A DNA stretch of 64,000 nucleotides from an uncultured Syntrophomonadaceae bacterium (GTDB taxonomy: Bacteria; Bacillota; Dethiobacteria; DTU022), in contig CAYXBB010000003.1 of the NCBI GenBank assembly GCA_964463285.1, positions 1,913 to 65,912 on the forward strand, given 5' to 3'. Below are positions 17,482 through 44,180 of the stretch, one piece after another. The notes below the pieces were generated by a model, which was not told the origin of the DNA, made no database searches, and was given only the letters and a program-made list of their open reading frames with translations. A program made the position numbers and the translations under genes. How positions within the stretch are numbered: the stretch's first letter is position 1; each line of letters begins with the position of its first letter.

Positions 17482-17640
17482 AAAAAATAAGCTGCCTCGC
17501 GAAAGAGGCAGCAATTATAACCTACCTTATCCACCTTCTTTCCTAAAAGGGAGGCTTAACCGTTTCCAGTTAAACCCTATCGTTCATGGCCCGTCGCAAC
17601 CATCTCAGGAGCCCATGAATCGAAGATGTATAAAATAATA
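17482..17640 (-). promoter_or_regulatory. Candidate Moco riboswitch (aptamer plus terminator) in the modD operon leader
   Basis: Conserved core GGGCCAUGAACGAUAGGGUUUAACUGGAAACGGUUAAGCCUCCCUUUUAGGAAAGAAGG, shared with two other loci. It is followed by the hairpin GCUGCCUCUUUCGCGAGGCAGC and UUAUUUUUU (17482-17512). Confidence 0.6.
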
Positions 17641-17941
17641 TTCAAATTAATTAACGCAAAATTAGTTTACCATAGATACCCACCCGGTGCAACCGGGTAA
17701 AATATGGGGGATCGCCTTTTATTTTATTATCCCGGCGAAACTGATATATTCAGACCTCCGGATCGCCGGGGCCATAACTCCCCTCCGCCGGAGCAAATGA
17801 CCGCAATAGACCGGCCAACTTTAAACCATAACGGTTAATTATAGATAATTTTTGCCAATTCATTTCGCTCACACCAGCCGTTATTATGTTTTACACCGGG
17901 ATGCCGGGGAAATTACGGCGATCTTCGGCCCTTGCATATAG

Positions 17942-18412
17942 CTATTCAACAAGTTTGCAGACATCAACCCATCCTTCGGAATTAGCGTGCCTCTCCAGCT
18001 CGGAAATTGTCAGCTCAATGGCACTATTGGCGCTTCCACACGCCGGAAACACGGTTTCAAATCGTTTCAACGATTCATCCAGGTAAATTTCCACCCCTTC
18101 GTTTACCGCAAACGGGCAAACGCCACCGGCCGAATATCCCACCAACGGTTTGGTCTCATCATGGGACAACATTTTAGCCTTCGTTTTAAATCGGGATTTG
18201 TATTTTTTATTATCTATCTTTGCATCGCCCGCTGATACAACTAAAATAACCCTATTTCCCAGGTGAAAGGACAGAGTTTTAGCTATGCGGCAGGCTTCAC
18301 ACTGTAAGGCCCGGGCGGCAAGCTCCACCGTAGCACTTGAAACATCAAATTCCAGTATCCGGTCTTCTATCCCTTTGCTTCTAAAATATCTTTTAACTTT
18401 TTCAATAGACAT
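17942..18412 (-). CDS. ybaK: YbaK/ProX-family aminoacyl-tRNA deacylase
   Basis: YbaK/EbsC-like sequence. The second ATG (18412) has the better ribosome-binding site, GGAGA. Confidence 0.7.
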   Translation of the reverse strand: MSIEKVKRYFRSKGIEDRILEFDVSSATVELAARALQCEACRIAKTLSFHLGNRVILVVSAGDAKIDNKKYKSRFKTKAKMLSHDETKPLVGYSAGGVCPFAVNEGVEIYLDESLKRFETVFPACGSANSAIELTISELERHANSEGWVDVCKLVE

Positions 18413-18834
18413 ATCCGGTGTCTCCATTATTATGTCCTGTTGTGATTATTAAGCCCCGAGAAAACAACAATCCTAAATTAGGGTGCAAAACCGGAAAAAG
18501 TATAGCCGCCGGCCAACAAAAAAAGTAATATGGTCCATAGCAAACAACCCATGTCATAATCTCCGGAGCAGTATTTAAAAAACAACCATTCCCATAAACA
18601 ATATTCTCCGGGGGCATGGGTTAATCCTGCCCGGGTGTTCGGGTCTGGACTTTCCGGTTCTCCCCTTCAGTTAATAGTTACTTAATCAAAATTTTGTCCA
18701 GCTAGCAGGGATAAAGATTCCAATAAAGAATAGGGTTTGTACACGGTAATTATGTCCTTTATTGGGGATCCGTGGCGAGACCTGGCACCGGAAACAAAAA
18801 ATCGGATCGCTAATTCCACCGGGGAGATGTAGCA

Positions 18835-19734
18835 ATGATTGGAACGGAAATTTCCAAGCCGCATTATCAATTCTTACTGGTTTTGACCTTTGTCTTGATG
18901 GTATTGTCTGCCGGTTTTAATCTGGTAACTTTCTCACAGGCAACAACGGCGTTCAACCAGTTAAAGGAAGAACATTCCACCTACCTGGAACTATGCGGGG
19001 ACCTGGATCACCTGAACAGCAAATATAGTGAACTCCAAAACCAGTATGACCTGCTGCTAAAAGAGAAAGAACAATTGGAAAATAAGCTTAACGATCAAAA
19101 TATATCCCGTGGTGAATACAGCCCCAGGGCTTACCTGACCATAGATGACGGCCCCGACATAAACACGGATCGGGTATTACAAATACTGGCCAAATATAAT
19201 GTGCCGGCCACTTTTTTTGTAATCGGACACAATAGTTCCGGAGACGAGCACATCTACAACCGCATCCTGGCCCAAGGACACGCCCTAGGCAATCACACTT
19301 TTACCCACAATTTAAAAAAAATCTACCGGTCTAAAGATGCCTTCATGGAAGATCTGCTGCGCCTGGAGGATCTGCTGGCAGAAAAGGCAGGAATCAGACC
19401 CGACATAATCCGCTTTCCGGGAGGATCCAGCAATACCGGGGTTTCCTCTGCCGTCCTAAAGGAGATAATTGCTGAACTAAAAGAATATGGTTATGACTAT
19501 TTTGATTGGAATGTTTCCACCGGGGACTGCAGCTCAGGACTAACGGCACCCGAGCTGGTTAAAAATGTAACCACCCAGGCAGATCGCCAGCCCGGTCAGG
19601 ATCTGGTAATCTTGATGCACAGCTTCAACCGGGTAACCGTAGAGGCATTGCCGCAGATTATCGAAGAACTGAGGGCGCGAAGTTATACCTTTGCCGCCCT
19701 TAAAAAAGGCGTGGTCAACGTGAAACATCGTTAA
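18835..19734 (+). CDS. Polysaccharide deacetylase (NodB domain) with an N-terminal membrane anchor and coiled coil
   Basis: NodB motifs TIDDGP ... LGNHTFTH. Confidence 0.75.
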   Translation: MIGTEISKPHYQFLLVLTFVLMVLSAGFNLVTFSQATTAFNQLKEEHSTYLELCGDLDHLNSKYSELQNQYDLLLKEKEQLENKLNDQNISRGEYSPRAYLTIDDGPDINTDRVLQILAKYNVPATFFVIGHNSSGDEHIYNRILAQGHALGNHTFTHNLKKIYRSKDAFMEDLLRLEDLLAEKAGIRPDIIRFPGGSSNTGVSSAVLKEIIAELKEYGYDYFDWNVSTGDCSSGLTAPELVKNVTTQADRQPGQDLVILMHSFNRVTVEALPQIIEELRARSYTFAALKKGVVNVKHR

Positions 19735-19818
19735 ATCGCAGTACTGGGGAACGGTTCCCCGGTATCCAGGTGTGTCAAGAGAACTCAGTCTGATATCCTC
19801 TTGACACACCACTATTGC

Positions 19819-20724
19819 CTATATCAGGGCCGTACTGAAATAACGCTCTGCTCTATCGGCCAATACAGTGGCCACAATTTTATTTTTACCGTGTTTTTCC
19901 GCCATCTGCACTGAAGCCCATACATTAGCTCCGGAGGATGTGCCCACCAGGAACCCCTGTTTCCTGGCCAGATCCCGGGCGGTTTGTATGGCATCCTCAT
20001 CCGTAACCTCCACTACTTCGTCTATGATAGAGGTATCCAGAACCGGTGGGATAAACCCGTCACCAATACCCTGGATCTTGTGCAGCCCGGGCTCATGGCC
20101 CAATAGGGCAGAAAAATTTTTGGGTTCTACCGCCACCACAATAGTGGCGGGGTTTTTTTCTTTCAAAAATCTGCCCACACCGCACAAGGTGCCGCCGCTT
20201 CCCAGCCCTGAAATAAATATATCTACCCGGCCGGCCAACTGTCTCCATATTTCCCCGGCAGTGGCCAGGTAATGGATTTTCGGATTATCGGGATTTTCAA
20301 ATTGCTGGGGCACAAAAATTGAAGGATCCGCCCCGGCTTTTTCCCGCACTTCCTCCACTGTACCCGCAATGCTTTTTTCAGCGGGGGTGAGTACAAGCTC
20401 TGCTCCAAAAGCAGCGATTATTTTTTTTCTTTCCTCGCTCATATTTTCCGGCATAACTATTATAACTTTGTATCCTTTTTGTACTCCAACCAGGGCAAGC
20501 CCTATCCCGGTATTGCCCGATGTGGGTTCCATTATCGTCATCCCCGGTTTTAGTTTGCCCTGCCTTTCAGCCTCTTCGATCATATATCGGGCCACCCGAT
20601 CTTTTATACTGCCGCCAGGGTTTAAAAATTCTGCCTTGGCATATATATTTAAACTCGTCATTTTCTTAAGGCTTACCATGGGTGTATTGCCTATTAAATC
20701 CAGTACTGTTTCCGATGCTTTCAT
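19819..20724 (-). CDS. cysK: Cysteine synthase (O-acetylserine sulfhydrylase)
   Basis: PLP-lysine motif NPGGSIKDR and the TSGNTG loop. Confidence 0.85.
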   Translation of the reverse strand: MKASETVLDLIGNTPMVSLKKMTSLNIYAKAEFLNPGGSIKDRVARYMIEEAERQGKLKPGMTIMEPTSGNTGIGLALVGVQKGYKVIIVMPENMSEERKKIIAAFGAELVLTPAEKSIAGTVEEVREKAGADPSIFVPQQFENPDNPKIHYLATAGEIWRQLAGRVDIFISGLGSGGTLCGVGRFLKEKNPATIVVAVEPKNFSALLGHEPGLHKIQGIGDGFIPPVLDTSIIDEVVEVTDEDAIQTARDLARKQGFLVGTSSGANVWASVQMAEKHGKNKIVATVLADRAERYFSTALI

Positions 20725-20893
20725 AAATTTTATATCCCCCTTACATTAAAATAGCATTTTACTGACCGCGCCGGATATTTCCCTCTAATCCAAATTATAC
20801 TTATTCATGAACCGGGGTGCAATCTTCCGGCATGGTTAAATTAATCCATACCCGGGTTTTAAAAAACAAGCGGCCTGCATGGAATTTGGCAGC

Positions 20894-21541
20894 TTACCGG
20901 CACATATAAACCAACAACCCCGATCGGAAGAAATAAATGGAGAAAGCACATAGAAAAATTCCCAGTCCAAAGACAATCCATCTGTAGATCCGATCGGTGA
21001 GCCATCTTTTTCCCGAAACTAATGCCGCAGCCAGAAAAGAAAACCATAGAAAATCGGCCAGGATATGCCCGCTGAAAAAGGAAAGTATTCCGGGCAAGCC
21101 ACTGTTCCGGGAAAGGGCAACGTAACCTGCACCAACTGTGGCCCACCAGATAAACCAGTACGGATTGCAGGCGGTGGCAACCAGCCCGTTCCAAAAAGTA
21201 GAACCTCTCCGGCCACTCCCTTTCATAGTGGGATTAAATGAAAGGGTGCCCCGGGCCACGCTCCTAATCATACCCCATCCCATCCAGGCCAGCACCAGAC
21301 CGCCGGCCATTCCAATGATACCGGCCAAAAAGGGCAGAGTGAGGTAGCTCCCCAGACCCAGGAGTAACAAAATAACCATCACTGCCTCCAAAAGAGCATG
21401 GCCCAGGGTGACCAGCGGGGCCGCCGGGTAACCCCGGCGGAATGTGTGTTCCACCATTACCGCGGTAAGAGGCCCCGGCATCAGTGCTCCCGAAAAACCA
21501 ACAAGCAAAGCCGTGGTAAAAATCAGGGTTAGTTCAAACAT
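20894..21541 (-). CDS. LysE-family amino-acid exporter
   Basis: About 215 aa with 6 TMs and an N-terminal PGP motif (SGALMPGPL). Confidence 0.6.
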   Translation of the reverse strand: MFELTLIFTTALLVGFSGALMPGPLTAVMVEHTFRRGYPAAPLVTLGHALLEAVMVILLLLGLGSYLTLPFLAGIIGMAGGLVLAWMGWGMIRSVARGTLSFNPTMKGSGRRGSTFWNGLVATACNPYWFIWWATVGAGYVALSRNSGLPGILSFFSGHILADFLWFSFLAAALVSGKRWLTDRIYRWIVFGLGIFLCAFSIYFFRSGLLVYMCR

Positions 21542-21686
21542 AACTGCAGGCGGCCGCCCCCTTTAATGCTTTCTTTAATTCAGTCCCCACGGGATAATCT
21601 ATTTGCTTGCCAACCGCTCACCAAAAGGGCATGTTCAAAAGGGCCCTCAAAATCTCTTCCGGCAGGCGGAGCTGTTTTTATCTACC

Positions 21687-23318
21687 CTACCGGGCCATAA
21701 ATAGTTCAATATCCGAATCAACAGTCCCGATTCCGGCAATACCGAATTTCTCTATCAGGACCTTGGCAACATTGGGAGAAAGGAACCCCGGAAGTGTAGG
21801 ACCAAGGTGAATGTTTTTAATGCCCAAATAAAGCAGTGCAAGAAGTACAATAACGGCTTTCTGTTCATACCAGGCAATATTGTAAGTAATCGGCAACCTG
21901 TTGATATCGTCAAGACCGAATACCTCCTTAAGCTTAAGGGCGATAACCGCCAGTGAATAACAATCGTTGCACTGTCCGGCGTCCAGTACTCTGGGAATGC
22001 CGCCGATATCGCCCAATCTCAGCTTATTGTAACGATATTTCGCGCAGCCCGCGGTTAGAATAACCGTGTCCTTGGGAAGTTTTTCGGCAAATTCAGTGTA
22101 ATACACCCTTGATTTCATACGCCCGTCACAGCCGGCCAGAACAAAGAATTTTTTAATAGTTCCGGATTTAACTGCATCTACAACCTTATCTGCCAGGGTC
22201 ATAACTTGGTTGTGGGCAAAACCTCCAAGAATGCATCCGGTTTCAATTTCATCGGGCGCAGAAAGGGTCCGGGCAAGCGCAATGATTTCAGAGAAATCCT
22301 TTTTGCCCCGTTCATCCGCTACAATATGCTTGCAACCGGGATAACCGGTGGAACCCGTGGTAAAGATTCTACCCCTCACTTCTTCACTTCTGGGAGGAAC
22401 GATGCAGTTAGTGGTAAACAGAATGGGGCCATGGAAGGGCCCAAATTCATCGATTTGTTTCCACCAGGCATTACCATAATTTCCGGCAAAGTTATCGTAT
22501 TTTTTAAATGCCGGATAGTAATGGGCGGGTAACATTTCACCATGGGTATATACATCTACACCGGTGCCCCCGGTCTGCTCCAGCAACTGTTCCAAATCGG
22601 TCAGGTCGTGACCGGAAATAAGTATTGCCGGGTTTTTCCTGACGCCTATATTGACTTCCGTGATCTCGGGATTACCAAATTTCGAGGTGTGGGCCTCATC
22701 TAAAAGCGCCATAACCCTCACACCGTATTCACCGGTTTTTAGGGTCAGCGACACCAGATCATCTGCCGAAAGAGAATCGTCCAAAGTTGTAGCCAGGGCT
22801 TCGTAGATAAATGAGTTTATATCCAGGTTTTCTTTCCCTAGATTCTTGGCATGCTCAGCATAGGCCGCCATACCCTTAAGGCCGTAGACAATCATCTCCC
22901 GCAGAGAACGTATGTCCTCATTTTCAGTGGACAGCACACCTACCAAAGCGGCCTTTTCCAGCATAGATTCCCTCGAACTTATCGAAAAGGTTGCTGCGTC
23001 GTGTAAATCCCCCGCGGAAACAGACAGTCTAAGCCCGTCCCTAAAAGCAATCATTTTCCCAATCTGGTTTTCAATAAAGTCATCATCAAAGTTTGCATTG
23101 GTAATTGTCATGAACAGGCTGCTGAGTACCTCGTAGTTTGTATCACCATACTTGCTGATATCAAGTTTCCCTTTCACAATAATTTCCGAAATGCCTTTAA
23201 GCGTATAAATAAGAAGATCCTGAAGCTTGGCTACTTCTTCGTTTTTTCCACAGACACCCCGTACCGTACAGCCTTTTCCTTTTGCTGTTTCCTGACATTG
23301 ATAACAGAACATGCTCAT
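21687..23318 (-). CDS. hcp: Hybrid cluster protein / hydroxylamine reductase
   Basis: N-terminal [11 protein letters not shown]...C cysteine cluster, with full-length Hcp similarity. Confidence 0.9.
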
Positions 23319-23506
23319 TCTGGTTTCCTCCCCCTTTGAATTTACTTTTGTGAAACAACCTTACCGACAATCGAATTGAATGCCGGCAATATGGAGAAAG
23401 GTTTTAAATAACAGAGCAGGTGCAATGTCCAGGCGGGGTCACCGGGCACAGGCCACCGGATTTATCCCGGTGATGGCTGGCAAGCACTCTATTGTTCTTT
23501 AGTTTA

Positions 23507-23821
23507 TCAAATCTTTGGCGCCGGCGCTTTTACAACAATCAATTCCAGGATTTCCGGATGGAGGTTTTTTACATTCATTTTTGTTTTAAAAGGAATTTTT
23601 AGAAGGGTTCCCGCTTCGTATTGGTGAATTTCCTGCTCATTGAGGCCAATGGAAAGCTTCCCACGAATGACCGTCATATATACATTCGAATTGGAGAAAT
23701 GTTCCGGTAGGCCCTCATTTTGATTGAATATCATGTGAAGATAATGAATGTTTTCATCGAATATTACCTTCTTCACCGTTGTTTTGTTCTCAGCAGATAG
23801 TTTAAACAGCTGTTCAACCAT
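23507..23821 (-). CDS. Cupin-domain protein
   Basis: Small beta-barrel protein (104 aa). Weak assignment. Confidence 0.45.
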   Translation of the reverse strand: MVEQLFKLSAENKTTVKKVIFDENIHYLHMIFNQNEGLPEHFSNSNVYMTVIRGKLSIGLNEQEIHQYEAGTLLKIPFKTKMNVKNLHPEILELIVVKAPAPKI

Positions 23822-24064
23822 AGGATCATGCCTCCTTGATTTTTTATTATATCATACAACCAAAACACCCCACCGCAGCCATCATTAAGTTTACCTGCTT
23901 CCACCAGTTAAAAGCTTATTCCCCATGGGTAAATTAAACCCTCTGGATTTTCAATACCGGGGTGCTAAAAAGAAGAAAAGAACTAAAACCGGGTTTTAAT
24001 AAAAGGGATGAAAAAACTTTTGGATATTATGGGGACAGGCCCGTCTGTCCCCATAATATTAACA

Positions 24065-24430
24065 TTAGCACGTTCGTGGGTTGGGCAAACCGGCAATACG
24101 CCGAGCGCCGTTTTTTATACCTCCCGGGAAAAGGTTTTCAATAGCAAGCATACTCAACCCGGTACCTTTGGTCAGTTGCCGATTCAATGGTGCCCGGCCA
24201 TGGTAACTATAAAAATCGCGCATGAACTGAATTACTTTCCAATGATCTTCACCAAGTTCAAATCCGCTCTCCAGGGCCATAGCTTCCGCAATTTCTTTAT
24301 GCCAGTCTCCGGATCGCCAAAAAAAACCTTCGTCGTCAAAAACTATACTACGCCCGGCAATGATCCGGTAACCGCGGCGGCCGGGTTCACCCGGCCGCCC
24401 GGTATTTTCCACAGGCCCATCGGTGCTCAT
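24065..24430 (-). CDS. TusE/DsrC/DsvC-family sulfur-relay protein
   Basis: Family signature HWKVIQFMRDFYSYHGRAPLNRQLTK and a C-terminal ...AGLPNPRTC. It overlaps the aldehyde oxidoreductase stop by 1 nt. Confidence 0.7.
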   Translation of the reverse strand: MSTDGPVENTGRPGEPGRRGYRIIAGRSIVFDDEGFFWRSGDWHKEIAEAMALESGFELGEDHWKVIQFMRDFYSYHGRAPLNRQLTKGTGLSMLAIENLFPGGIKNGARRIAGLPNPRTC

Positions 24431-27102
24431 CAGGGCCGGGAGCCAGCCAGGGTCGCTTTAATCTTTTCCGGCGTGGCCGGCAGATCGCAAATCCAGACCC
24501 CTGCCGCATTTTTAATTGCGCTGATGATCGCCGGTGCGGTGGGCAGCAGCGTTAATTCGCCGATCCCGGTAGAACCTTTAGTTCCCCGTTCCCTGGGGGT
24601 TTCCCGAATGATCGATTCCATCTCAAAAGAATCGTTAATTGTAGGGAATTTAAATGTAACCCAATCCTTGGTTTTACCGGCAACATACTCTTCGCGCAGA
24701 GCATAGCCGGCGCCCATATCTGCGCCGCCCTCCAGTTGCCCTTCAAAATTATGAGGGTTGATAACCGGACCGGCATCAACTGCAGTGGTCATTTTCAGGA
24801 TTTTAACCGCTCCGGTTTCTGTGTTTACCTCTAGCTCGGCCATTTGTAGAGCCATCACCTGGGATTCGAAAGAAGCTCCCTGCCCGGTTTTGGGATCCAT
24901 TGCATCGTCGGCGGGAACCTCTTGAAGCGTGGCCTTTCTGCCCATAAAGCGGGTGGGGTAACCGGCATCTTTAAGCCCTTGGTGGGTACTTGTACCGGAT
25001 TCGTTCATAGCCTGCTTAAGCTGATCTAGAGCATCTAACAGGGCTCCGCCCGCCATATAGGTCATGCGGCTACCGGCTGCAAACCCGGTAGCCGGGGTTA
25101 GTTCAGTATTCCGGGTTTGAAGGCGAACCTTATCCAAGGGCAGGTTCAGTCCGTCCGCAGCCAGCTGGGTAAGCATGGAATCATTGCCTTCACCGGGATC
25201 AGCCACCCCCGCATACACGGTTACACCACCATCAGGATCTATTTCCAGCGCCACCAGAGCTTCATCTGCCGGATCACCGATGCCAAACGCTCCTGCTGCC
25301 AGGCCTACACCACGCTTAACAATCCCTTTCTGATGCTCACGCGCTTCGCGACAGGCCCGCTCATAGTGCGGCTTCATAGCCTCACACAGCTCGGGGAAGG
25401 GCCACTGGTTCACCTGGATACCGGTTGAGGTAACCTGTCCCGGCTGTAGCGAATTTTGCAGCCGGAACTGCAGGGGGTCTATACCAGCCTTGTCGGCCAA
25501 CATGTTTACCGCACATTCTACCGCAAAGTTTGATTGCGGCGGCCCGGCCCCTCGGGCCGCAGAACCCCAGGGGTTGTTGGTGTAAACCAGCCGGCTATTG
25601 GTCCGGATGTTTGGAATATGGTAGGCGCTGGTCAACATTAACAAAGAGCGCCGGATAATGTCATCTCCAATTGAATGGTATGCGCCGTTATCCACCAGTA
25701 TATCCATTTCAAGAGCGCTCAGTCGGCCTTCTTTGTCTGCACCGAGTTTAACTTGCATCTCGTAGGGATGTCTCTTGGGGGTCATTTGTAAGGTTTCGCT
25801 TAAACTGGGAATATAGCGAACCGGTCGTCTAAAATGTAAGGCTGCCGCCCCGACGAGATCCTCAGAGGTAATCTCCAGCTTGATTCCAAATTGTCCTCCC
25901 GCCTGGGCTTCTTCATAGCGCATATTCTCCCAGCCAAGGGCATCCTGGAGCATTTGTAAGTGGTAGTGTATATCGATACTGCGGCCAATAATCACCAGCT
26001 GGGCATCTTCCCCCTCTCCCTCCAGATAAGCCACACTGGCTTCCGTCTCCAGGGGGGCCTGATGATTAATCTGAGTGGTAAAATGGTTTTCTATCACTGC
26101 CGTTGCTTCGTTGAAACCCTTTTGGGCATCGCCTCTGATCAGTGGCTTGGTATAACAGAGATTTGGCCATTGGTCATGCACCTGAACAGCTCCCTCAACC
26201 AGTGCTTTATGCGTTGAATCCAGAACCGGCAACAGCTCGTAATCCACTTTTACCGCCCGGGCCGCTTCCAATGCCTGCTCCCTGGTCTCTGCCACCACCG
26301 CCGCTACCGGATCACCGATAAAACGCACTTTATCTTCGCAAAGAACAGGCCGATCATCAATAGCCATTAGCAGGCGATTCGTCCCCTTTACATCCTTCGC
26401 AGTTATCACACCAATCACACCCGGCATTTTTTCCGCTTCCGAGTAATCGATATTTTTGATCAGGGCATGAGGATGAGGACTGCGCACGGCGGCCAGTTCC
26501 AGGGAACCGGGAATAACAATATCGGCAGTATATTTGGCCATTCCGCAGGCCATAATCATGGCAGTAGGACGGGGATGTGAAACCCCGATCTTGGGGCCGT
26601 GGGGATCTGGACGCACATCCTCCGGCTTAACCTCACCGCGCAAAAAGCGACCGGCAAGTTTAACGGCTTCAATGATCTTGACGTAACCCGTGCAGCGACA
26701 AAGGTTGTGACGCAGGGCTTTTTTAATTTCTTCGGTTCCGGGGTTATTGTTTTCATCCAACAGGGCCTTTGTGGCCATGATCATCCCGGGGGTGCAAAAA
26801 CCGCACTGGATTGCACCCGCCAACACAAACGCTTCCTGGATCAGATGCGGGTTATCCGGGGTGCCCAATCCCTCCACAGTGAGAACATCGGCACCGTCTA
26901 TTTTGGTTGCCTTAAGCAAACAGGATCTAACTGCTTTGCCGTCAACAATTACTGTGCAGGCACCGCACTGGCCGGCCTTGTCGCATGATTGTTTGGGGCC
27001 GGTTAAATGTAGCTCATCACGAAGCAATTCCAGTAAGGTCAGTTTGGAATCAACCACCGCCTCCTGAAACACACCGTTAACCTTGAATTTAATCTTGTTC
27101 AA
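24430..27102 (-). CDS. mop: Molybdenum-containing aldehyde oxidoreductase (Mop-like, xanthine oxidase family, single polypeptide)
   Basis: Two N-terminal [2Fe-2S] motifs (CDKAGQCGACTV; QCGFCTPGM...CRCTGY) followed by the Moco domain, about 890 aa. The start is assigned to the TTG at 27102 after GGAGGG (NKIKFKVNG...). The upstream in-frame GTG at 27138 lacks a ribosome-binding site. Confidence 0.85.
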   Translation of the reverse strand: MNKIKFKVNGVFQEAVVDSKLTLLELLRDELHLTGPKQSCDKAGQCGACTVIVDGKAVRSCLLKATKIDGADVLTVEGLGTPDNPHLIQEAFVLAGAIQCGFCTPGMIMATKALLDENNNPGTEEIKKALRHNLCRCTGYVKIIEAVKLAGRFLRGEVKPEDVRPDPHGPKIGVSHPRPTAMIMACGMAKYTADIVIPGSLELAAVRSPHPHALIKNIDYSEAEKMPGVIGVITAKDVKGTNRLLMAIDDRPVLCEDKVRFIGDPVAAVVAETREQALEAARAVKVDYELLPVLDSTHKALVEGAVQVHDQWPNLCYTKPLIRGDAQKGFNEATAVIENHFTTQINHQAPLETEASVAYLEGEGEDAQLVIIGRSIDIHYHLQMLQDALGWENMRYEEAQAGGQFGIKLEITSEDLVGAAALHFRRPVRYIPSLSETLQMTPKRHPYEMQVKLGADKEGRLSALEMDILVDNGAYHSIGDDIIRRSLLMLTSAYHIPNIRTNSRLVYTNNPWGSAARGAGPPQSNFAVECAVNMLADKAGIDPLQFRLQNSLQPGQVTSTGIQVNQWPFPELCEAMKPHYERACREAREHQKGIVKRGVGLAAGAFGIGDPADEALVALEIDPDGGVTVYAGVADPGEGNDSMLTQLAADGLNLPLDKVRLQTRNTELTPATGFAAGSRMTYMAGGALLDALDQLKQAMNESGTSTHQGLKDAGYPTRFMGRKATLQEVPADDAMDPKTGQGASFESQVMALQMAELEVNTETGAVKILKMTTAVDAGPVINPHNFEGQLEGGADMGAGYALREEYVAGKTKDWVTFKFPTINDSFEMESIIRETPRERGTKGSTGIGELTLLPTAPAIISAIKNAAGVWICDLPATPEKIKATLAGSRP

Positions 27103-27340
27103 TACATTCCCTCCATTGCAAGTTGAATGTGGAGACACTGCTTTCTAATTGTTAAAGTATTTCACCCCTTTCGGCAATTATTCCCAAGGCGTTTTACCCT
27201 GCCGGAAATATTATCGCAAGGGTTTCCGGCAACCGATTGTTAAGATAACCGCAGCTATAGTCATGCACACAGATGAACTGAAAAAAACTGATCTTTTAAC
27301 GTATTTTAGGTTTCCAGAGTTATATATACTAATTAAATTA

Positions 27341-27520
27341 CAAAATAAAAAATCACTATCGCCAATATGGAATAGTGATTAGCAAGTTACGCATAAAAAA
27401 TAGCCTTCTTTCCACATTGGGAGGTATAACCGTTTCCAGTTATGCCCTACTGCCTATAGTTCATGGCGGGTTATGCCTGTAGATACCATAGGTCGAAGGA
27501 GAGTTGGTATTTATTTGACA
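27341..27520 (-). promoter_or_regulatory. Candidate Moco riboswitch with terminator, in the leader of the aldehyde oxidoreductase gene
   Basis: Core CCGCCAUGAACUAUAGGCAGUAGGGCAUAACUGGAAACGGUUAUACCUCCCAAUGUGGAAAGAAGG. It is followed by the hairpin AAUCACUAUUCCAUAUUGGCGAUAGUGAUU and UUUUUAUUUUG (27341-27380). Confidence 0.6.
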
Positions 27521-27755
27521 GGTCTGACCATTATGATTATACTATACAAGTTTACGCTGATCAAGCTTGGGGAAACAGCCTTGTATTTGTTTTCCAAGTA
27601 CTCTTGCAACCGGGTAGATTACCGCAGCTACATTACTGCTTGATGTTTTAACTTTAACCGGATTTTCCTTTTTTATCTGATTTGACCTCCATTCCAAGAC
27701 AATATCTGCTATAGTATTTCTAAAGAAGCTTGATTAATCGAAAGTTTGGTGATCT

Positions 27756-28703
27756 ATGACTGGCCCCCGATCAAAAAAAATAACTATGTACGCCCTTATG
27801 TCTATACTGGCTGTTGCCTGGGGCCTGGATTATGTAGCCGTAAAAAAATGCCTGGGCGCTTTAGATGTACCCATACTGCTGTTTTTCCGCTACTGCCTGG
27901 CCATGTGCGCCGTATTTATAATTAAAATGTTCATGGACCGTAAGTTTTACCTGCATAAGCAAGATATTATCTGGCTAATATTGAGCGCCATTACCGGAGA
28001 GATTGGCTGTTTATCCTTGGAATATTTCAGCATCGACTATTTGCCCCTATCCATATTAACCCTGATCCTGGCCTGTGTACCCATCGTCTCCATCCTTATT
28101 GAAAAAGTGCTGTACAGCAAACCCATCACCGGATTTATGTTACTGGGTGCAATTGGCTCCCTCCTGGGTGTAGGCATCATCATTGGCGCCGATTTCGGAG
28201 AGCTTTTTCAGGGCAGACTTATCGGTTATCTACTGGCCTTGGGGGCGGTGCTGTGCTGGAACGCCTATAATTTTATAACGGCTAGACTTCAGGATCGCTA
28301 TTCTGATATTTCGCTTTCTTTTTTCCAAATTGCCTGCACCGCCTTGCTACTGGCTCCCTATGCTTTGCGCCACCTTCCGGATTCCGGCCTGATAACCGGA
28401 GAGGTGTTTTCCTGGCTTTTATTTTTAGGGATGTTTAGCTCCGGCATCGGCTTTGTAATTTATGTTCGCTCCCTGGATATCTTGGGAGTAACCCCCACAG
28501 CGCTTTTCTCCAACTTTATGCCGGTAAGCACGGCCTTTTTAAGTTGGGTGTTTTTTAAAGAGATGATTTTACCCATACAGATATTCGGCGGGATAATTGT
28601 GATTGCCTCCGCTTGCCTGGTGATCTATGAAAAGGGAAGATCGGAAAGTGCCGCTTCTTTAAAAATTTCCACCGCCTCCTTATTTAGACTGAAAGAAGAA
28701 TAA
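27756..28703 (+). CDS. DMT-superfamily (EamA-like) transporter
   Basis: Ten predicted TMs with duplicated EamA halves. Confidence 0.75.
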   Translation: MTGPRSKKITMYALMSILAVAWGLDYVAVKKCLGALDVPILLFFRYCLAMCAVFIIKMFMDRKFYLHKQDIIWLILSAITGEIGCLSLEYFSIDYLPLSILTLILACVPIVSILIEKVLYSKPITGFMLLGAIGSLLGVGIIIGADFGELFQGRLIGYLLALGAVLCWNAYNFITARLQDRYSDISLSFFQIACTALLLAPYALRHLPDSGLITGEVFSWLLFLGMFSSGIGFVIYVRSLDILGVTPTALFSNFMPVSTAFLSWVFFKEMILPIQIFGGIIVIASACLVIYEKGRSESAASLKISTASLFRLKEE

Positions 28704-29718: not shown

Positions 29719-29737
29719 TGTCCCAACCTCCTCGCCT

Positions 29738-34660: not shown

Positions 34661-34951
34661 CTTTCTCCACGCTCCCCTGATCTACTGTCCAACAGAATAA
34701 AAATGCCCCTTACTGCAGCTTACGCTGCTTGTGATTATGCAGCGCTTATGATTTGTTTCTTTCTTAAGAAAGTATAGCAATATCCCCTGAAGGATGTCAA
34801 TCAAATGGCGATATTGCTAATCCGGATGAGAGAGAAAAGGGCCTTCGCACCGTTTCCTTTTCTCGCCAAAAGGGTTTGCATATTTCTTCCGCTTCTAGTA
34901 TATTGTATAATAGTTTTGGAAAGTAAAGGCAAAACCGGGAGGTTAAGAGCC

Positions 34952-35281
34952 TTGCGTGTAGTTTTCTTAAAACTTTTGGTAAATACCGGCGGGTTTTACC
35001 TTGCTTCCCTTCTTTTCCCCAGAATTACCTTTGATCGTCCCTGGGTACTGTTCTGGGCCGGGCTGATGTTAGGAGTGGTAAATATCCTGGTCAGGCCGGT
35101 CTTGCTTCTGCTGACCCTGCCCATAAATTTGTTTACATTCGGACTCTTCACGTTAGTGATCAATACCCTGATGGTTTTGCTTGCCGGCTCGCTGACCAGG
35201 GGTCTGTACATTCCGGGATTCTGGCATGCTTTGGCAATCGCAATATTTATATCTGTAATAAACATTTTCCTGTTTGATTGA
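34952..35281 (+). CDS. Holin-4 (YvlD/YqeZ-like) family small membrane protein
   Basis: Conserved LVRPVLLLLTLPINLFTFGLFTLVINTLMVLLA. The inferred start is the TTG at 34952 after GGGAGG. The longer ORF from 34805 has no ribosome-binding site. Confidence 0.5.
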   Translation: MRVVFLKLLVNTGGFYLASLLFPRITFDRPWVLFWAGLMLGVVNILVRPVLLLLTLPINLFTFGLFTLVINTLMVLLAGSLTRGLYIPGFWHALAIAIFISVINIFLFD

Positions 35282-35479
35282 ATTCTGTTTGACTAAATGA
35301 AGGAAAATAACCGAGATATTCGAAATGAATATAGCTGTATAGAATAAAAATTTTTTTCTTCCTCCCGATGGAAACAGACCAGGGAAAAACATGGAAAGAA
35401 GCCTTCCAGCCCGGGCCTTTTCACCAAATAATTTCTGTCTAGACCGGAGAGAGGAAAAAAAATAGTAGGAGGTATAGTG

Positions 35480-37093: not shown

Positions 37094-37170
37094 AAAAGCG
37101 GTGCCCTGCAGGAAAAATAATTTTTTCGAACCCCTTTAGTAAAGGGGAAAGGTAAAAGGAGATCAGTTAA

Positions 37171-38121: not shown

Positions 38122-38194
38122 ACTTTTTGATGGAGGATGAGATGTGGCTCGGTGGGTGTAACAAAAACAGCCCAATTCAGAGGAGGTATGCAAA

Positions 38195-39631
38195 ATGGTT
38201 AAACAATCTGATGAGGAGCTGTGTTATACTCCGGCAATAGAACTGGCGGAGCTGATCCAAAATAAAAAGATATCCCCGGTAGAGTTAACTACTGTATTCC
38301 TGCGGAGAATTGAAAAGATCAACCCGCTGATAAATGCCTATTGCACCGTAGCTCAGGATTATGCTCTCAAAAGCGCCGGTGAAGCTGAGGCACAGCTGAT
38401 GACGGATCGGGATACAGGCCCCCTCCAGGGCATACCGGTATCTATAAAAGACGTTACTTTCACCAAAGGGATACGCACTACTTTTGCTTCCAAGTTGTTT
38501 GAAAACTATGTACCCAAAATCGATTCCGCAGTGGTGGAACGGTTGAAAAACGCAGGCGCGGTAATACTGGGTAAAACCAATACCCCGGAATTTGCCGCCG
38601 GCGGATCCACATATAACCGGCTTTTCGGGGTAACCCGCAACCCCTGGGATCTCACCTGCAACAGTGGAGGCTCCAGCGGAGGAGCGGCAGCGGCAGTGGC
38701 TTCCGGGATAGGGCCGCTGGCCCAGGGTAATGACGTGGGGGGCAGCCTGAGAATCCCGGCCAGTTTTTGCGGGGTGGTTGGGCTAAGGCCTTCCCCGGGG
38801 AGGGTGCCCACCTATCCAAATGAACTTTACTGGGATAGCGTGGCAGTGGAAGGCCCCATGGCTCGGACAGTAAAGGATTTGGCCTTAATGTTAAACGTAA
38901 TCAGCGGAGCTGATCACCGGAGCCCGATCGCCATATATAACAGCCGGGAAGATTTTTTACAGGCCCTGAAAAAGCCCGACCTTAAACGCCTTCGGGTGGC
39001 CTGGAGTGATAATTTGAATTTAATTCCGGTAGATGATGAAATTTTAGAGATATGTCGAACTGCCATAAAAATTTTTGAGGATCTGGGCTGCCAGGTGGAA
39101 GAAGACACCCCTGATCTGACAGGAATTAGAAAGACGGCTTTAACCCTTAGAGGGGTCCGCTACGCCGGATTGTATCAACATCTGCTTAAAGAAGATAAAT
39201 TCCTTAATTCGGTGGACCCCAGTATCATCAATAACACCAGACAAGGAATCAATCTTAGGGGAAGTGAAATATCCGAAGCCGAACGAAACCGTTCAAAACT
39301 CTGGCGAACAGCAGTAAGGTTTTTCAATAGCTACGACCTGCTGCTCACCCCCACCCTGCCCATTCCACCATTCCCGGCAGATACTCTTTATCCTACTGAA
39401 ATCAACGGCAAGGAAATGGAGAACTATATAGATTGGGTAATGCTGACTTACGCTTTCTCCATATTGGGGTTGCCGGCAATCACTATCCCCTGCGGTTGGA
39501 CCAGGAAGGGAATGCCGGTGGGCTTGCAAATTGTCGGCCAAGCCTACGGCGAAACCACTGTTCTGCAGGCTGCCGCCTGCTTTGAAACCGCCAACCCCTG
39601 GGCGGATAAACGACCAAATTTTGACCTTTAG
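38195..39631 (+). CDS. Amidase (amidase-signature family)
   Basis: Amidase-signature GGSSGG and Ser-cisSer-Lys region. Confidence 0.8.
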   Translation: MVKQSDEELCYTPAIELAELIQNKKISPVELTTVFLRRIEKINPLINAYCTVAQDYALKSAGEAEAQLMTDRDTGPLQGIPVSIKDVTFTKGIRTTFASKLFENYVPKIDSAVVERLKNAGAVILGKTNTPEFAAGGSTYNRLFGVTRNPWDLTCNSGGSSGGAAAAVASGIGPLAQGNDVGGSLRIPASFCGVVGLRPSPGRVPTYPNELYWDSVAVEGPMARTVKDLALMLNVISGADHRSPIAIYNSREDFLQALKKPDLKRLRVAWSDNLNLIPVDDEILEICRTAIKIFEDLGCQVEEDTPDLTGIRKTALTLRGVRYAGLYQHLLKEDKFLNSVDPSIINNTRQGINLRGSEISEAERNRSKLWRTAVRFFNSYDLLLTPTLPIPPFPADTLYPTEINGKEMENYIDWVMLTYAFSILGLPAITIPCGWTRKGMPVGLQIVGQAYGETTVLQAAACFETANPWADKRPNFDL

Positions 39632-39793
39632 AAGCCTCCGGATAATATCACAAACGTTTCAAATCTCATATTGTATTTGCCGTCATCGGCATTGTAAGTG
39701 CCGATGAGATCCTTTTTCACCGATCACTATATAAAATAAAGGCAGGGATAAAACCCCGCCCTTATCTTTCGATTCCGGCCCGACAAACCCGGT

Positions 39794-41059
39794 TTAGGGG
39801 AAGATGCCTCTTGCTTTTTGAGCGGAAACCAACCTTTTCATGGCTACAATGTAAGCAGCTTCTCTCATGGAGATACACATTTCTTGAGCAAGATCAAATA
39901 CCTTATTAAAGCTGCAAACCATGATCCGTTCCAGGTTGGAATTTACCGTATCGATATCCCAAGCCATATGCTGCATGTTCTGGACCCATTCGAAATATGA
40001 CACCACTACCCCGCCACAGTTTGTCAATATATCAGGAACAGCAGTAATGCCCCTCTTTATCAGGATTTTGTCTCCTTCATAGGTGGTCGGTCCATTGGCA
40101 CCCTCCACCACTATCCTGGCCTGAATCGCTTTGGCTATACCTTCTGTAATCTGGTTTTCCATGGCTGCCAGTACCAGAAAATCTACCTTGCATGTAAGCA
40201 AACTACGGTTGTCGATTTCAGTTAATCCATCCTGATGGTAGCCTTTGATCAGGTGGCGGGGGCTGGTTTTTACATATTCCAGCAGTCGGGGAATATCTAT
40301 CCCCGATTCGCAGTAAAATGCTCCGGAAATGTCGCTGACCGCTACTATCTTAGCCCCGAACTGATGCAAGAAATCTGCAGCCGCACTGCCTACATTCCCA
40401 AAGCCCTGCACTACCACGGTGGCACCTTTAAGATCGATCCCTGCTTTGCAGGCTATTTCCCGGGTAATAATTGCCACACCGCGCCCCGTGGACTCTTTCC
40501 TGCCCAGCGATCCTCCTGTTTCAACCGGTTTGCCGGTAACCACTCCGGAAGAGGGGCATCCTTTCAGCTTGCTGTATGTATCCACGATCCAGCCCATAAT
40601 CTGGGCATTGGTGTTTACATCCGGCGCCGGTATGTCCAACTCCGGCCCGATAAAATCGGCAATTTCAGCTGTGTATCTCCTGGTTAGCCTTTCAATCTCG
40701 TTTTCAGATAGTTCTGTCGGATCGCAGGTAACCCCGCCCTTGGCTCCCCCATAGGGAATATCGACCACCGCACACTTGAAGGTCATCCAGCCGGCCAAAG
40801 CACGCACCTCATCCATATCGACATCCGGATGGTAACGCAGCCCGCCTTTAAACGGCCCCCTGATACTGCAGTGTTGGACCCGATAACCGGTAAACATCCT
40901 GGTACGACCATCATCCATTTTAACCGGGAAATTTACCGTAACTTCTCTTTCCGGGTAACGGAGAAAAACATAATCATCCAATTTTAAACCAGCAGCTACT
41001 GCCGCCTCATCCAACTGATTCAACAGTGATTGATACGGATTAGGTTTTTGGGTTTCCAC
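39794..41059 (-). CDS. gdhA: Glutamate dehydrogenase (Glu/Leu/Phe/Val dehydrogenase family)
   Basis: Catalytic region GGAKGGV and dinucleotide fold GFGNVG. Confidence 0.85.
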   Translation of the reverse strand: METQKPNPYQSLLNQLDEAAVAAGLKLDDYVFLRYPEREVTVNFPVKMDDGRTRMFTGYRVQHCSIRGPFKGGLRYHPDVDMDEVRALAGWMTFKCAVVDIPYGGAKGGVTCDPTELSENEIERLTRRYTAEIADFIGPELDIPAPDVNTNAQIMGWIVDTYSKLKGCPSSGVVTGKPVETGGSLGRKESTGRGVAIITREIACKAGIDLKGATVVVQGFGNVGSAAADFLHQFGAKIVAVSDISGAFYCESGIDIPRLLEYVKTSPRHLIKGYHQDGLTEIDNRSLLTCKVDFLVLAAMENQITEGIAKAIQARIVVEGANGPTTYEGDKILIKRGITAVPDILTNCGGVVVSYFEWVQNMQHMAWDIDTVNSNLERIMVCSFNKVFDLAQEMCISMREAAYIVAMKRLVSAQKARGIFP

Positions 41060-41178
41060 ATTATCACCCCTGCATAATATTTTATTAATTAGTTACAAGA
41101 CCTGTCACCTTTCCCGGTTCTACTATACCCTCTATTTAAAAAATGGTCAATCATCATAGGAATTACAAGAGTTGGAAA

Positions 41179-42264
41179 TTAATGGCCGATAATAAACATT
41201 CGCTCGGGAGGCAGCTGAACAGAACAAGTTTTCCCGACCGTAATATGGGGGGCCGCTATTTTTGAGGCTTCGGCTTCCAAATGAAACCCTTTCTCCCAAC
41301 CGTTTTCCACCTTTACCCGGTAGGTGTAAGAAGCAACTCCATCCACCGCCTCTACCACTTTAACCTGTAAACAGTTATCAGCAGAAAAATCCTGTAACCG
41401 GATATATTCCGGTCTGATTCCTACCGTAACTTTTTGATTTTGGTAATAGCTTCCCGGGTAAGTTAAGTTTATCTTAAGTCTCTGGTTCCACTCCGCCACA
41501 AACACCGTAGCTACAGAACCCTTTTTGTTCTCTATAATCCCTTCTACCAAATTTCTGGCACCGATTAATTTGGCCACAGTTTTATTGGCCGGGGCATTGA
41601 TCAGCTCGTTTTTAGGGCCCAGCTGTAGAATTTCTCCCGAATCATACACTGCGATCTGGGAACTTAGCCGGTAGGCCTCATCCAGGTTGTGGGAGACAAA
41701 AATGATATTCCCCTGATAAAACTGATGTATAGCCAGTAGTTCTCTTTCCAGTCGGCCCCGGACCTGGGTATCTAGCGCTGAAAAAGGTTCGTCCAGTAAC
41801 AATATATCCGGCTCCGGCGCCAGAGCCCGGGCCAGAGCTACCCGCTGTTGCTGTCCTCCTGAAAGATTGCGGGGAGAGCGATGTTTAAAATCACTTAAGC
41901 GCATTTTTTCCAGCAGATAACCAACCCGGGAGTCAATCTCTTTCCGGTTTTGCGCGGAGATGCCAAAAGCAACATTTTCATAAACCGTAAGGTGGGGAAA
42001 AAGGGCATAGTTTTGAAACACGTAGCCTATTTTACGCTTTTGCGGAGAGGTATTAATGCCGGCCTGTGAATCGAATAGCACTCGCCCATTGACATTGATA
42101 TAGCCTTCATCAGGGTTCACCAACCCCGAGATGCACTGCAAGGTCAAGCTCTTTCCGCTACCGGAGGGGCCCACCAGCGATAAAATTTCCTGGTTTATGG
42201 AAAAGGAGGCCTGTAGATTGAATCCCGGGAGCACTTTGTTAACTCTTACCTCGAACAAGGCCAT
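41179..42264 (-). CDS. modC: Molybdate ABC transporter ATP-binding protein with a C-terminal TOBE domain
   Basis: Walker A GPSGSGKS and signature LSGGQQQR, with a TOBE extension. Confidence 0.85.
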   Translation of the reverse strand: MALFEVRVNKVLPGFNLQASFSINQEILSLVGPSGSGKSLTLQCISGLVNPDEGYINVNGRVLFDSQAGINTSPQKRKIGYVFQNYALFPHLTVYENVAFGISAQNRKEIDSRVGYLLEKMRLSDFKHRSPRNLSGGQQQRVALARALAPEPDILLLDEPFSALDTQVRGRLERELLAIHQFYQGNIIFVSHNLDEAYRLSSQIAVYDSGEILQLGPKNELINAPANKTVAKLIGARNLVEGIIENKKGSVATVFVAEWNQRLKINLTYPGSYYQNQKVTVGIRPEYIRLQDFSADNCLQVKVVEAVDGVASYTYRVKVENGWEKGFHLEAEASKIAAPHITVGKTCSVQLPPERMFIIGH

Positions 42265-42956
42265 TACCTCCTGGAGCCAATGTTTTGTTCAAAACCACAA
42301 CTGTTTCGTTTCCAATAGTTAAGTGAAAAAATAGATGCCATAGATATAACCAGTATTACAACTACCCACACCAGGGCCTTGGTGTTATTCCCTGCAGCCA
42401 CCGCAAAATATATCGCCAAGGGGATGGTTTGGGTTTTGCCGGGGATATTGCCGGCCAACATCAGGGTAGCTCCAAATTCCCCCAGGGAACGGGCAAATGA
42501 AAGGATAATCCCGGCCATTATCCCCGGCCAGGCCAAGGGGACAGTAATCCGCCAGAAAATGTTCCATTCCGAGGTGCCTAGGGTGCGGGCCGCATTTTCT
42601 ATATTGGGCTCAATTTGTTCAAATGCTCCCCGGGCAGTCTGATACATCAGCGGAAAAGCTACCACCGTGGAGGCTATAACTGTAGCCCACCATGAAAATA
42701 TTACGGTAGTGTCCAACTTTAACAGCAGTTTGCCTAAAGGGCCATGTTTCCCAAACAGCAACAGCAGCCCAAATCCCAGTACCGTAGGGGGAAGCACCAG
42801 GGGTAGAGTAAACAGTCCGTCAATCAGCCCCCCGGCTTTTCCCCGGTAACTTGCAAGCCAGCGGGCGGCAGCACATCCAAGAAAAAAAGTTATTACTGTA
42901 GATAAAGAAGCGGTTTTTAATGAAATCCATACCGGTACAAAATCTAGATCAGGCAT
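42264..42956 (-). CDS. modB: Molybdate ABC transporter permease
   Basis: Permease with the EAA region (FARSLGEFGATLMLAGN). The start at 42956 (MPDLDF...) follows GGCGGAG. Confidence 0.85.
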   Translation of the reverse strand: MPDLDFVPVWISLKTASLSTVITFFLGCAAARWLASYRGKAGGLIDGLFTLPLVLPPTVLGFGLLLLFGKHGPLGKLLLKLDTTVIFSWWATVIASTVVAFPLMYQTARGAFEQIEPNIENAARTLGTSEWNIFWRITVPLAWPGIMAGIILSFARSLGEFGATLMLAGNIPGKTQTIPLAIYFAVAAGNNTKALVWVVVILVISMASIFSLNYWKRNSCGFEQNIGSRR

Positions 42957-43125
42957 ATATCTGCTCCGCCTTCTTAAATTAGTGAAAATATTTGACGAGG
43001 GGGGGGAATTGCCCTCATCACCTTTCCTTTCAGCAGGTAACAGGCAAGTTCCCCCCCAATACGGACCTTTCACAAGGGAGAGTCATATGAAACAATATCC
43101 CCACCTCTCCCCTTGTATGCCCGGG

Positions 43126-43923
43126 CTAATTTAGAACCTTAAATCCATATTTCTCAAATACTGCTCCGGCTTGCTCTCCGGTTAAAAATTCAATTAAATC
43201 GGTTGATTCTTCGGGATACTCACTATCTTTGATCACGGCAACCGGATAAATTACCGGCGAATGGGAACCGTCGGGAGCCGCAGCTACTACCTCTACCTTA
43301 TCGGAAATCTGGGCATCAGTGCGGTATACCGCCCCTACATCCACCGCCTCTTGTTCCACGTAGGCCAGCACCTCGCGAACGTCTTTGGCCAGCATTAACT
43401 TAGACTGAACCTTTTCCCAGATACCCAGAGTTTCAAATGCTTCCTGGGCATACTTGCCGGCCGGCACAGATTCCGGATCGCCGATAGTAATAAACGTGAT
43501 ATCGTCTTTGGCCAGATCGGCAAATTCAGCAACCCCGGAAAAACCCTTAGGAACCACCAGCACTAGTTCATTTTGTAATAGATCAACCCTTGTGTCATCC
43601 AGCAACAAACCTTTTTCCTCAAGTTCGTTCATCTGCTTGGAAGCTGCTGACATGAAAATATCAACCGGGGCCCCCTGTTCGATCTGCTGCTGCAAGGCAC
43701 CGGAAGAGCCAAAGTTGAACTCAAAACTTATATGGGGATGTTCCTCGGTATAAAGCTGTTCGATTTCCTGCATGGCATCGGTAAGGCTGGCCGCCACCGA
43801 CAGGCTCAGGGTAACCGGTTCCGCCTCTTCTGTTTCTTCGGGAGTGCAACCAACCAGGGTAAATAACATAGCCACGGTTAGGCCTATAATGGCCAATAGT
43901 CTGATAATCTGTTTTCTGCTCAA
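43126..43923 (-). CDS. modA: Molybdate ABC transporter substrate-binding lipoprotein
   Basis: Lipobox LVGC and ModA-like body. TTG start after AAGGAGAAAG. Confidence 0.85.
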   Translation of the reverse strand: MSRKQIIRLLAIIGLTVAMLFTLVGCTPEETEEAEPVTLSLSVAASLTDAMQEIEQLYTEEHPHISFEFNFGSSGALQQQIEQGAPVDIFMSAASKQMNELEEKGLLLDDTRVDLLQNELVLVVPKGFSGVAEFADLAKDDITFITIGDPESVPAGKYAQEAFETLGIWEKVQSKLMLAKDVREVLAYVEQEAVDVGAVYRTDAQISDKVEVVAAAPDGSHSPVIYPVAVIKDSEYPEESTDLIEFLTGEQAGAVFEKYGFKVLN

Positions 43924-43964
43924 TTGTCTTTCTCCTTCATAATTTTTGGCGCCCCTTCTTTAAG

Positions 43965-44180
43965 TAACAAAAATAAAATGTTTCAATAAATGGTATTTTT
44001 ATTGAAACACCGGAATAAATATTTTTTCGATTACCTCCTTTCCAATATCACGGGGGGGAAAACTGTTTCCAGTTTGCCCCTGCATCATTAGATGGCGGCC
44101 AGTATCCCATAAACATTTTTCCCGGCCGGGGCATGTCTTCCGAGAAATGTTCACAGGGAGAATGGCTCGGAGATAAATAA
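43965..44180 (-). promoter_or_regulatory. Candidate Moco riboswitch with terminator, in the modABC leader
   Basis: Core GGCCGCCAUCUAAUGAUGCAGGGGCAAACUGGAAACAGUUUUCCCCCCCGUGAUAUUGGAAAGGAGG. It is followed by the AT-rich hairpin GUUUCAAUAAAAAUACCAUUUAUUGAAAC and AUUUUAUUUUUG (43965-44008). Confidence 0.55.

Follow-up and report, generated by a model that had tools for sequence, protein, structure and literature searches.

Three terminator-associated leaders of the Moco/Tuco riboswitch family precede molybdenum-related transcription units in an uncultured Syntrophomonadaceae bacterium

We analyzed a window of 64,000 nucleotides from an uncultured Syntrophomonadaceae bacterium (GenBank assembly GCA_964463285.1, contig CAYXBB010000003.1, positions 1,913 to 65,912); all coordinates below are those of the window. 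A first-pass annotation had noted a leader element recurring three times on the minus strand and had proposed it to be an RNA sensing the molybdenum cofactor (Moco). The three repeats are essentially certain to be ordinary members of the Rfam family RF01055, which comprises the riboswitches for Moco and for the tungsten cofactor (Tuco). We estimate a probability of about 85% that they represent three independent members of the family, each heading a separate transcription unit as its 5' leader and acting by termination-type feedback. Copy 1 precedes a unit led by modD, copy 2 a gene for a Mop-type molybdopterin aldehyde oxidoreductase and copy 3 the modABC genes.

The whole window was scanned against Rfam 15 at gathering thresholds. 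This gave exactly three matches, all of them to RF01055 (Molybdenum/Tungsten riboswitch aptamer, Moco RNA motif), all on the minus strand and all at the places where the repeats had been described. Copy 1 (17637-17519) scored 56.0 bits (E 1e-10), copy 2 (27510-27389) 56.2 bits (E 9e-11) and copy 3 (44184-44019) 74.0 bits (E 5e-16). None of the matches was truncated, as each covers positions 1-135 of the 135-position model, and the scores exceed the gathering score of 36 bits by 20-38 bits. The Moco covariance model, which had been named as the check to make, was therefore positive for all three copies. The cores of about 60 nucleotides first recognized (17538-17600, 27405-27475 and 44035-44100) were found to lie inside the aptamers, but they take in no more than the most conserved 3' half of each (P4, P5 and the 3' strand of P1). 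Among the sequence blocks listed as shared, GGG..AACUGGAAAC.GUU and GGAAAGRAGG were confirmed in every copy; copy 3 has CCCCCC in place of CCUCCC. CGCCAU does not represent a homologous block; in the RF01055 alignments it falls in the 3' strand of P2 in copy 2 and in the 5' strand of P3 in copy 3, and copy 1 reads GGCCAU.

The predicted stems P1, P2, P4 and P5 carry the compensatory changes that the first-pass annotation had suggested looking for. RNAalifold was given copies 1 and 2 together with a related copy located upstream of an orthologous oxidoreductase gene (locus L076) and recovered the four stems without guidance, with eight pairs changed on both sides. A covariance model (R1) built from this three-sequence alignment matched the three known sites in the window and no others, and was used to align ten family members, i.e., the three window copies and seven relatives from related loci. 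Standard pairs were found in 92.3% of the cells of this alignment and changes on both sides in 21 of the 34 pairs. When the 3' partners were slid by one to three columns as a control, paired cells amounted to 36-44% and changes on both sides to 5-7 pairs, and none of 500 shuffles matched the observed values. Fitting the ten sequences to the model biases the result towards the structure; even so, the margin is large. The three window copies alone have nine pairs with compensatory changes. The covariation implies that the copies keep a fold and are not mere repeated sequence. Minimum free energy (MFE) folding of copies 1 and 2 also reproduces P1, P2, P4 and P5, with the outer pairs of P1 in copy 1 joining 17637-17631 to 17529-17523. 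The RF01055 scores and covariation counts already rule out that the repeats arose by chance or constitute a dispersed, non-functional repeat, an explanation whose sole attraction is the shortness of the blocks listed at the outset. We give it practically no credence in view of E-values from 1e-10 to 5e-16 against a curated covariance model, of substitutions between the copies that are compensatory rather than of sequence identity, and of the location of all three copies between a promoter region and a terminator, 5' of molybdenum (Mo)-related genes.

All three copies have a GAAA tetraloop on P4. The tetraloop receptor in P2 (canonical CCUAAG...UAUGG), read by sequence only, is near-canonical in copy 3 (CCUGUG...UAUGG) and degenerate in copy 1 (CCUGAG...GACGG) and copy 2 (UCUACAG...CAUGA). 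Inspection of P3, the stem expected to distinguish Moco from tungsten cofactor variants, splits the copies. It is present in the modABC copy only (44096-44082, GC-C-AUC/UAAU/GAU-GC in the MFE fold); copies 1 and 2 are P3-less, since a linker of only 5 nucleotides between P2 and P4 (CGAUA and CAGUA, respectively) gives no room for it. Copy 3 has the same five-stem architecture and P4 tetraloop as the P3-containing Moco riboswitch of RF01055 known from the Escherichia coli moaA leader (PMC2408646), and is like the P3-type RNAs also in its junction blocks CCGAG, CCYCCC and GGAAAGGAGG, in its location 5' of modABC and in being a predicted OFF switch (PMC2408646). It differs from the moaA RNA by a 29-nucleotide extension of P2 and by its expression platform, which is an intrinsic terminator, whereas in moaA the ribosome-binding site is sequestered within P1. 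Copies 1 and 2 have 5 nucleotides at the P3 site and otherwise the same core, as in the P3-less Tuco variant (Regulski et al., 2008; for Eubacterium limosum, PMC11725836).

A hairpin followed by a U-tract had been reported behind each copy, and we found such structures 10-23 nucleotides after P1 in all three leaders (z-scores computed against shuffles). The copy 1 hairpin (17512-17491; GCUGCCUC-UUUCGC-GAGGCAGC) lies 10 nucleotides past P1, has a folding energy of -16.0 kcal/mol (z -5.1) and is followed by the U-tract UUAUUUUUU (17490-17481). In copy 2 the hairpin (27380-27351; AAUCACUAUUCCA-UAU-UGG-C-GAUAGUGAUU; -11.7 kcal/mol, z -4.3) is located 23 nucleotides past P1 and runs into UUUUUUAUUUU (27350-27340). 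The hairpin of copy 3 (44011-43977; GUGUUUCAAUAAAA-AUACCAU-UUUAUUGAAACAU), 19 nucleotides past P1, consists of 14 bp with a 7-nucleotide loop (-12.0 kcal/mol, z -3.3) and precedes UUUUAUUUUU (43976-43967). A simple terminator scan found the copy 1 hairpin only, the other two being missed because of their AU-rich stems. MFE folds of the complete leaders hold aptamer and downstream hairpin together in all three copies, and in none of them does the terminator overlap the aptamer. From this separation we infer an OFF-switch layout, in which the ligand-stabilised aptamer would leave the terminator free to form; the folds thereby reproduce the terminator-type OFF architecture originally proposed. 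An ON switch was considered for copy 2 and rejected, as aptamer and terminator are separate there and the MFE fold contains the two at once. Promoter-like sites were found on the minus strand upstream of copy 2 (27564-27536, TTGATC-17-TATAAT) and copy 3 (44229-44201, TTGCCT-17-TATAAT), each with 10 of 12 matches and ending about 25 and 16 nucleotides 5' of the aptamer, respectively.

Candidate antiterminators are plausible, although not proven, for copies 1 and 2. In copy 1, CCCUUUUAGGAAAGAAGGUGG (17541-17521), comprising aptamer core and the 3' strand of P1, could pair with GCUGCCUCUUUCGCGAGG (17512-17495) in the 5' arm and loop of the terminator (-14.8 kcal/mol). In copy 2, CCAAUGUGGAA (27420-27410, P5 and junction) could pair with UUCCAUAUUGG (27372-27362) over 11 contiguous bp (-15.0 kcal/mol). 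About 5% of shuffled arms pair equally well with the 3' half of the aptamer. We propose that during transcription of the leader the aptamer (P1, P2, P4 with its GAAA tetraloop, P5, and P3 where present) would either bind a metal-pterin cofactor or not. Binding would lock P1 and the P5/GGAAAG core, so that the hairpin and U-tract form and transcription stops 5' of the genes (OFF). When no ligand is bound, the segment comprising P5, GGAAAG and the 3' strand of P1 would be available for pairing with the terminator's 5' arm, and the polymerase would read through. The outcome would be feedback repression of molybdate uptake by modABC, of the modD-led unit of eight genes and of the Mop-type aldehyde oxidoreductase, and each leader probably shuts off its Mo-related operon when the cofactor is plentiful. 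The anatomy of the leaders gives good support to termination-type OFF control in copies 1 and 2, and somewhat less in copy 3.

The genes named in the first-pass annotation were assigned correctly in all three units, which are all transcribed from the minus strand. The unit behind copy 3 (41179-43923) consists of modA (43126-43923), modB (42264-43073) and modC (41179-42264), with profile matches to TIGR01256 (210 bits) and TIGR02141 (263 bits) that are both over the cut-off. The gdh gene downstream of modABC has promoter-like sites of its own. Directly 5' of the promoter of the modABC riboswitch, the open reading frame at 44328-45179 (minus strand) encodes no more than the last ~277 residues of a dihydropyrimidinase/D-hydantoinase, corresponding to TIGR02033 positions 178-454. 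The reading frame 5' of it is full of stops, and it looks like a 5'-truncated gene fragment. The open reading frame upstream of it on this strand (45247-46587, 446 aa) is unrelated and weakly resembles a cyclic-2,3-diphosphoglycerate-synthetase-like P-loop protein.

Behind copy 1, eight genes are located on the same strand with short gaps (10623-17432). The first, modD (16569-17432), matches TIGR01334 with 208 bits against a cut-off of 179. It is followed by genes for an S-adenosylmethionine-dependent methyltransferase (15791-16399), an ABC ATPase (15021-15710), an NMT1/SsuA-type binding protein with a lipoprotein signal (13981-14994, lipobox ITGC), a permease (13233-14009), a signal-less FbpA-like binding protein of the SBP_bac_6 type (12302-13195), a CobW/HypB-like GTPase (11619-12305) and an ABC-ATPase-like protein (10623-11603). 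This agrees with the modD and transporter unit expected there. Other minus-strand terminator-like matches within 10623-17432 are weak, with three G-C pairs and poor T tracts, and lie within coding sequence.

The oxidoreductase behind copy 2 (24430-27102) is a protein of 890 aa that combines two 2Fe-2S domains with the Moco-binding domains known from the xanthine-oxidase family. It is matched best by NF045668, the model for molybdopterin-dependent aldehyde oxidoreductases, with 790 bits, which is under the equivalog cut-off of 1100. Translation likely starts at the TTG at 27102, behind a GGAGGG ribosome-binding site, and orthologues align from residue 1. About 30 nucleotides past the stop codon, a perfect 10-bp all-GC palindromic hairpin (GGCGGCCGGG TTCA CCCGGCCGCC, 24376-24399) probably marks where this monocistronic unit ends; since a convergent open reading frame is located on the plus strand (24008-24706), it may serve both directions. 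At the other end of the unit, two promoter-like sites lie back to back and overlap: the minus-strand site at 27564-27536 drives the copy 2 leader, and a plus-strand site at 27515-27543 with 11 of 12 matches drives the divergent gene for an EamA-family transporter (27756-28703). The two units may thus have a regulatory region in common.

The long leader of the oxidoreductase gene had been singled out for a further CUGGAAAC repeat beyond the terminator. The repeat is present at 27310-27317, but its occurrence is at chance level: this 8-mer occurs six times in the window where 1.9 occurrences are expected, and the aptamers account for three of them. The sequence between terminator and start codon had no Rfam match even at E<=10 and folded no better than shuffled sequence (z +0.39), and on these grounds a second element in the leader was rejected. 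Copy count, Rfam search and folding thus gave no detectable signal that repeat or leader length is meaningful. A 17-codon open reading frame in the same sequence was judged by eye to be without a ribosome-binding site.

Several observations weigh against feedback control by termination at all three sites. No promoter-like site was found in the scan upstream of copy 1. For copy 3 we obtained no convincing antiterminator, as its best pairing with the 3' half of the aptamer was no better than shuffles; the sole stronger alternative (-13.9 kcal/mol) employs the 3' strand of P2. The terminator is always included in the MFE structure, so that switching would need to be kinetic. The instability of Moco has stood in the way of a direct demonstration of binding even for the family (PMC2408646). 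An OFF switch before an enzyme that uses the cofactor is counter-intuitive if the ligand is the enzyme's own cofactor. The remaining points concern copy 2, the terminator of which (27340) is separated from the TTG start at 27102 by 240 nucleotides, and its conservation among relatives. We compared 80 orthologous oxidoreductase loci from species-representative genomes. The closest orthologue (87% amino-acid identity), from a Syntrophomonadaceae metagenome-assembled genome (MAG; L001), has flanking genes in common with the window, but its intergenic region of 474 nucleotides cannot be aligned to that of the window and has no Moco RNA when searched with RF01055 to E<=10. Conservation of copy 2 in the nearest relative was accordingly rejected. 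A Moco RNA was found 5' of the matched oxidoreductase gene in only four of the 80 loci, without P3 in L076 and L022, where it is in tandem, and with P3 in L061 and L069. At a further locus (L011) a P3-containing copy follows the matched gene and lies ~3.5 kb 5' of a second oxidoreductase gene that the same contig carries. The association of Moco RNAs with Mop-type oxidoreductases is sporadic, and both architectures precede the same enzyme family. The tandem at L022, an Anaerolineales MAG, consists of two P3-less RNAs (2336-2459 and 2554-2678) ~100 nucleotides apart and resembles tandem arrangements reported for Syntrophomonas wolfei and Geobacter metallireducens.

The gap, the nearest relative and the low count among the orthologous loci would all fit a copy 2 that does not regulate the oxidoreductase, being an orphan or decaying leader or giving a short terminated RNA, with the promoter of the enzyme gene located inside the gap. 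We nevertheless consider this quite unlikely. The gap holds no minus-strand promoter-like site, no gene intervenes between riboswitch and enzyme, and, with a score of 56 bits and every stem paired, the aptamer is intact, which speaks against decay. Moco RNAs are moreover found directly 5' of orthologues of this enzyme in independent lineages.

With regard to the ligand, the first-pass annotation had called all three copies Moco-sensing RNAs. The Mo-related genes downstream agree with this, but as P3 was found in copy 3 only, the label may be too simple. In line with the literature, copy 3 most likely senses Moco; it has both a P3 stem and a position upstream of modABC, the features of the P3-containing (Moco-specific) subclass, which copies 1 and 2 do not share. 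Copies 1 and 2, lacking P3, belong structurally to the class for which sensing of the tungsten cofactor has been proposed in the literature. In the founding survey 58 of 176 representatives were P3-less, and this class was found to correlate with tungsten (W) metabolism and was proposed to contain tungsten-cofactor sensors (PMC2408646). No W-specific gene (tupABC, wtpABC or W-type AOR) was found in the window, and no Mo or W gene beyond the three riboswitch-headed units; the genes under the P3-less copies encode an enzyme of the Mo-hydroxylase family and the ModD/ABC module.

These genes are nominally Mo-related and not W-related, which would be expected if the three copies have a single ligand in common (Moco or a metal-independent form of the pterin) and the absence of P3 in copies 1 and 2 is neutral structural variation. 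This has to be taken seriously, although we lean against it. P3 status does not track enzyme family, and the occurrence of both architectures before orthologous Mop-type oxidoreductases weakens a strict use of P3 as a marker of the enzyme metal. Exceptions to the P3 rule have also been listed, and specificity was not converted by deleting P3 (Regulski et al., 2008; PMC2408646). On the other hand, the loss of P3 correlates near-perfectly with tungsten metabolism, in 17 of 19 organisms (PMC2408646). In E. limosum all five RF01055 riboswitches are without P3, and the fetABC1 and focA operons are up under W limitation, with transcription of WOR1 and tupABC unaffected (PMC11725836). Both architectures coexist in the window, and it is the bona fide molybdate transporter that is headed by a P3-containing copy, as distinct specificities would predict.

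That copies 1 and 2 are true tungsten-cofactor sensors beside a Moco sensor in the same genome is a rather doubtful proposition. If they were, the OFF switch before a Mo enzyme would make sense, the enzyme being repressed when the W cofactor is abundant; repression of a Mo-dependent enzyme under abundant W cofactor was suggested for similar exceptions by Regulski et al. (PMC2408646). Sufficiency of the W cofactor would then shut off the Mo-dependent Mop-type oxidoreductase in a Mo-to-W isoenzyme switch, and ModD together with the conserved module of methyltransferase, NitT/TauT-type ABC importer, cytoplasmic FbpA-like binding protein, CobW-like GTPase and ABC-like ATPase would be an uncharacterised system for acquisition or trafficking of W or Mo.

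The terminator-type platforms of copies 1 and 2 resemble the fetABC1 and focA leaders of E. limosum, and the ABC transporter with an "Fe3+-type" binding protein under copy 1 echoes the "Fe ABC-type" operons of that organism (PMC11725836). Unlike those of the Tuco variant, the genes controlled here, a xanthine-oxidase-family oxidoreductase and a ModD operon with a NitT/TauT-type importer, are not recognized tungsten genes. S. wolfei, a member of the Syntrophomonadaceae, is reported to carry no fewer than 15 Moco RNAs, some of them arranged as tandem triples (PMC2408646). It is typical of this lineage, and also seen in the window, that a genome has several copies, that these differ in P3 status and that their platforms are terminators, but unlike the S. 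wolfei tandems the three copies head three separate transcription units.

The riboswitch family has been known since 2008 and is annotated automatically by standard pipelines, and its terminator platforms, gene classes and P3 dichotomy have been described (PMC2408646; PMC11725836); our finding adds little to the knowledge of the family itself. For annotation, it fixes three regulatory RNAs and the operon boundaries in an uncultured Syntrophomonadaceae-like genome, and documents both Moco-type and P3-less architectures in a stretch of 27 kb. Two modest points are added. P3 status does not go with enzyme family, as orthologous Mop-type oxidoreductases are preceded by either type, and a conserved ModD/ABC/CobW module is repeatedly found under P3-less control and is thereby a candidate for a role in Mo/W handling. 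What novelty is left resides in which genes stand under P3-less riboswitches.

The substrate of the transporter module behind copy 1 was addressed by PDB sequence searches, which returned only a distant nitrate-binding protein or nothing. An AlphaFold model of the signal-less, cytoplasmic binding protein, of moderate confidence (pLDDT 74), showed a generic likeness to ferric-binding proteins at template modelling (TM) scores of 0.5-0.6, a likeness that says nothing on Mo or W. In two further distinct loci, a P3-less Moco RNA is located upstream of close homologues of the lipoprotein. The gene order under the riboswitch is methyltransferase, binding protein and permease in one (L083-85), and ATPase, binding protein and permease followed by two FmdE genes in the other (L086). 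A metagenome scan with a profile of the binding protein found only distant NMT1-family relatives (20-33% identity), none of them with a Moco RNA. Several Bacillota contigs contain the seven-gene module of the window (10623-16399, minus strand), the genes of which occur in two different orders. In L088 (4884-10401), L090 (4619-10394) and L092 (1433-7205) the seven genes are present without modD, in a different, cobW-first order and without a Moco RNA, while the version in the window has modD in front and is under a P3-less Moco RNA, as is the importer-containing part of the module in L083-85 and L086.

FmdE-domain genes (PF02663) adjoin the riboswitch-controlled NMT1-type importer in related genomes (L086, 9839-11258; L084, 3738-4331). 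The FmdE domain is an accessory domain of Mo/W formylmethanofuran dehydrogenase operons, and these neighbours hint at a link between the importer and Mo/W enzyme maturation. On the same contig as the P3-less Moco RNA of L086, a NiCo riboswitch (RF02683, 63.7 bits; 1759-1844, minus strand) is located 5' of a cation-efflux gene.

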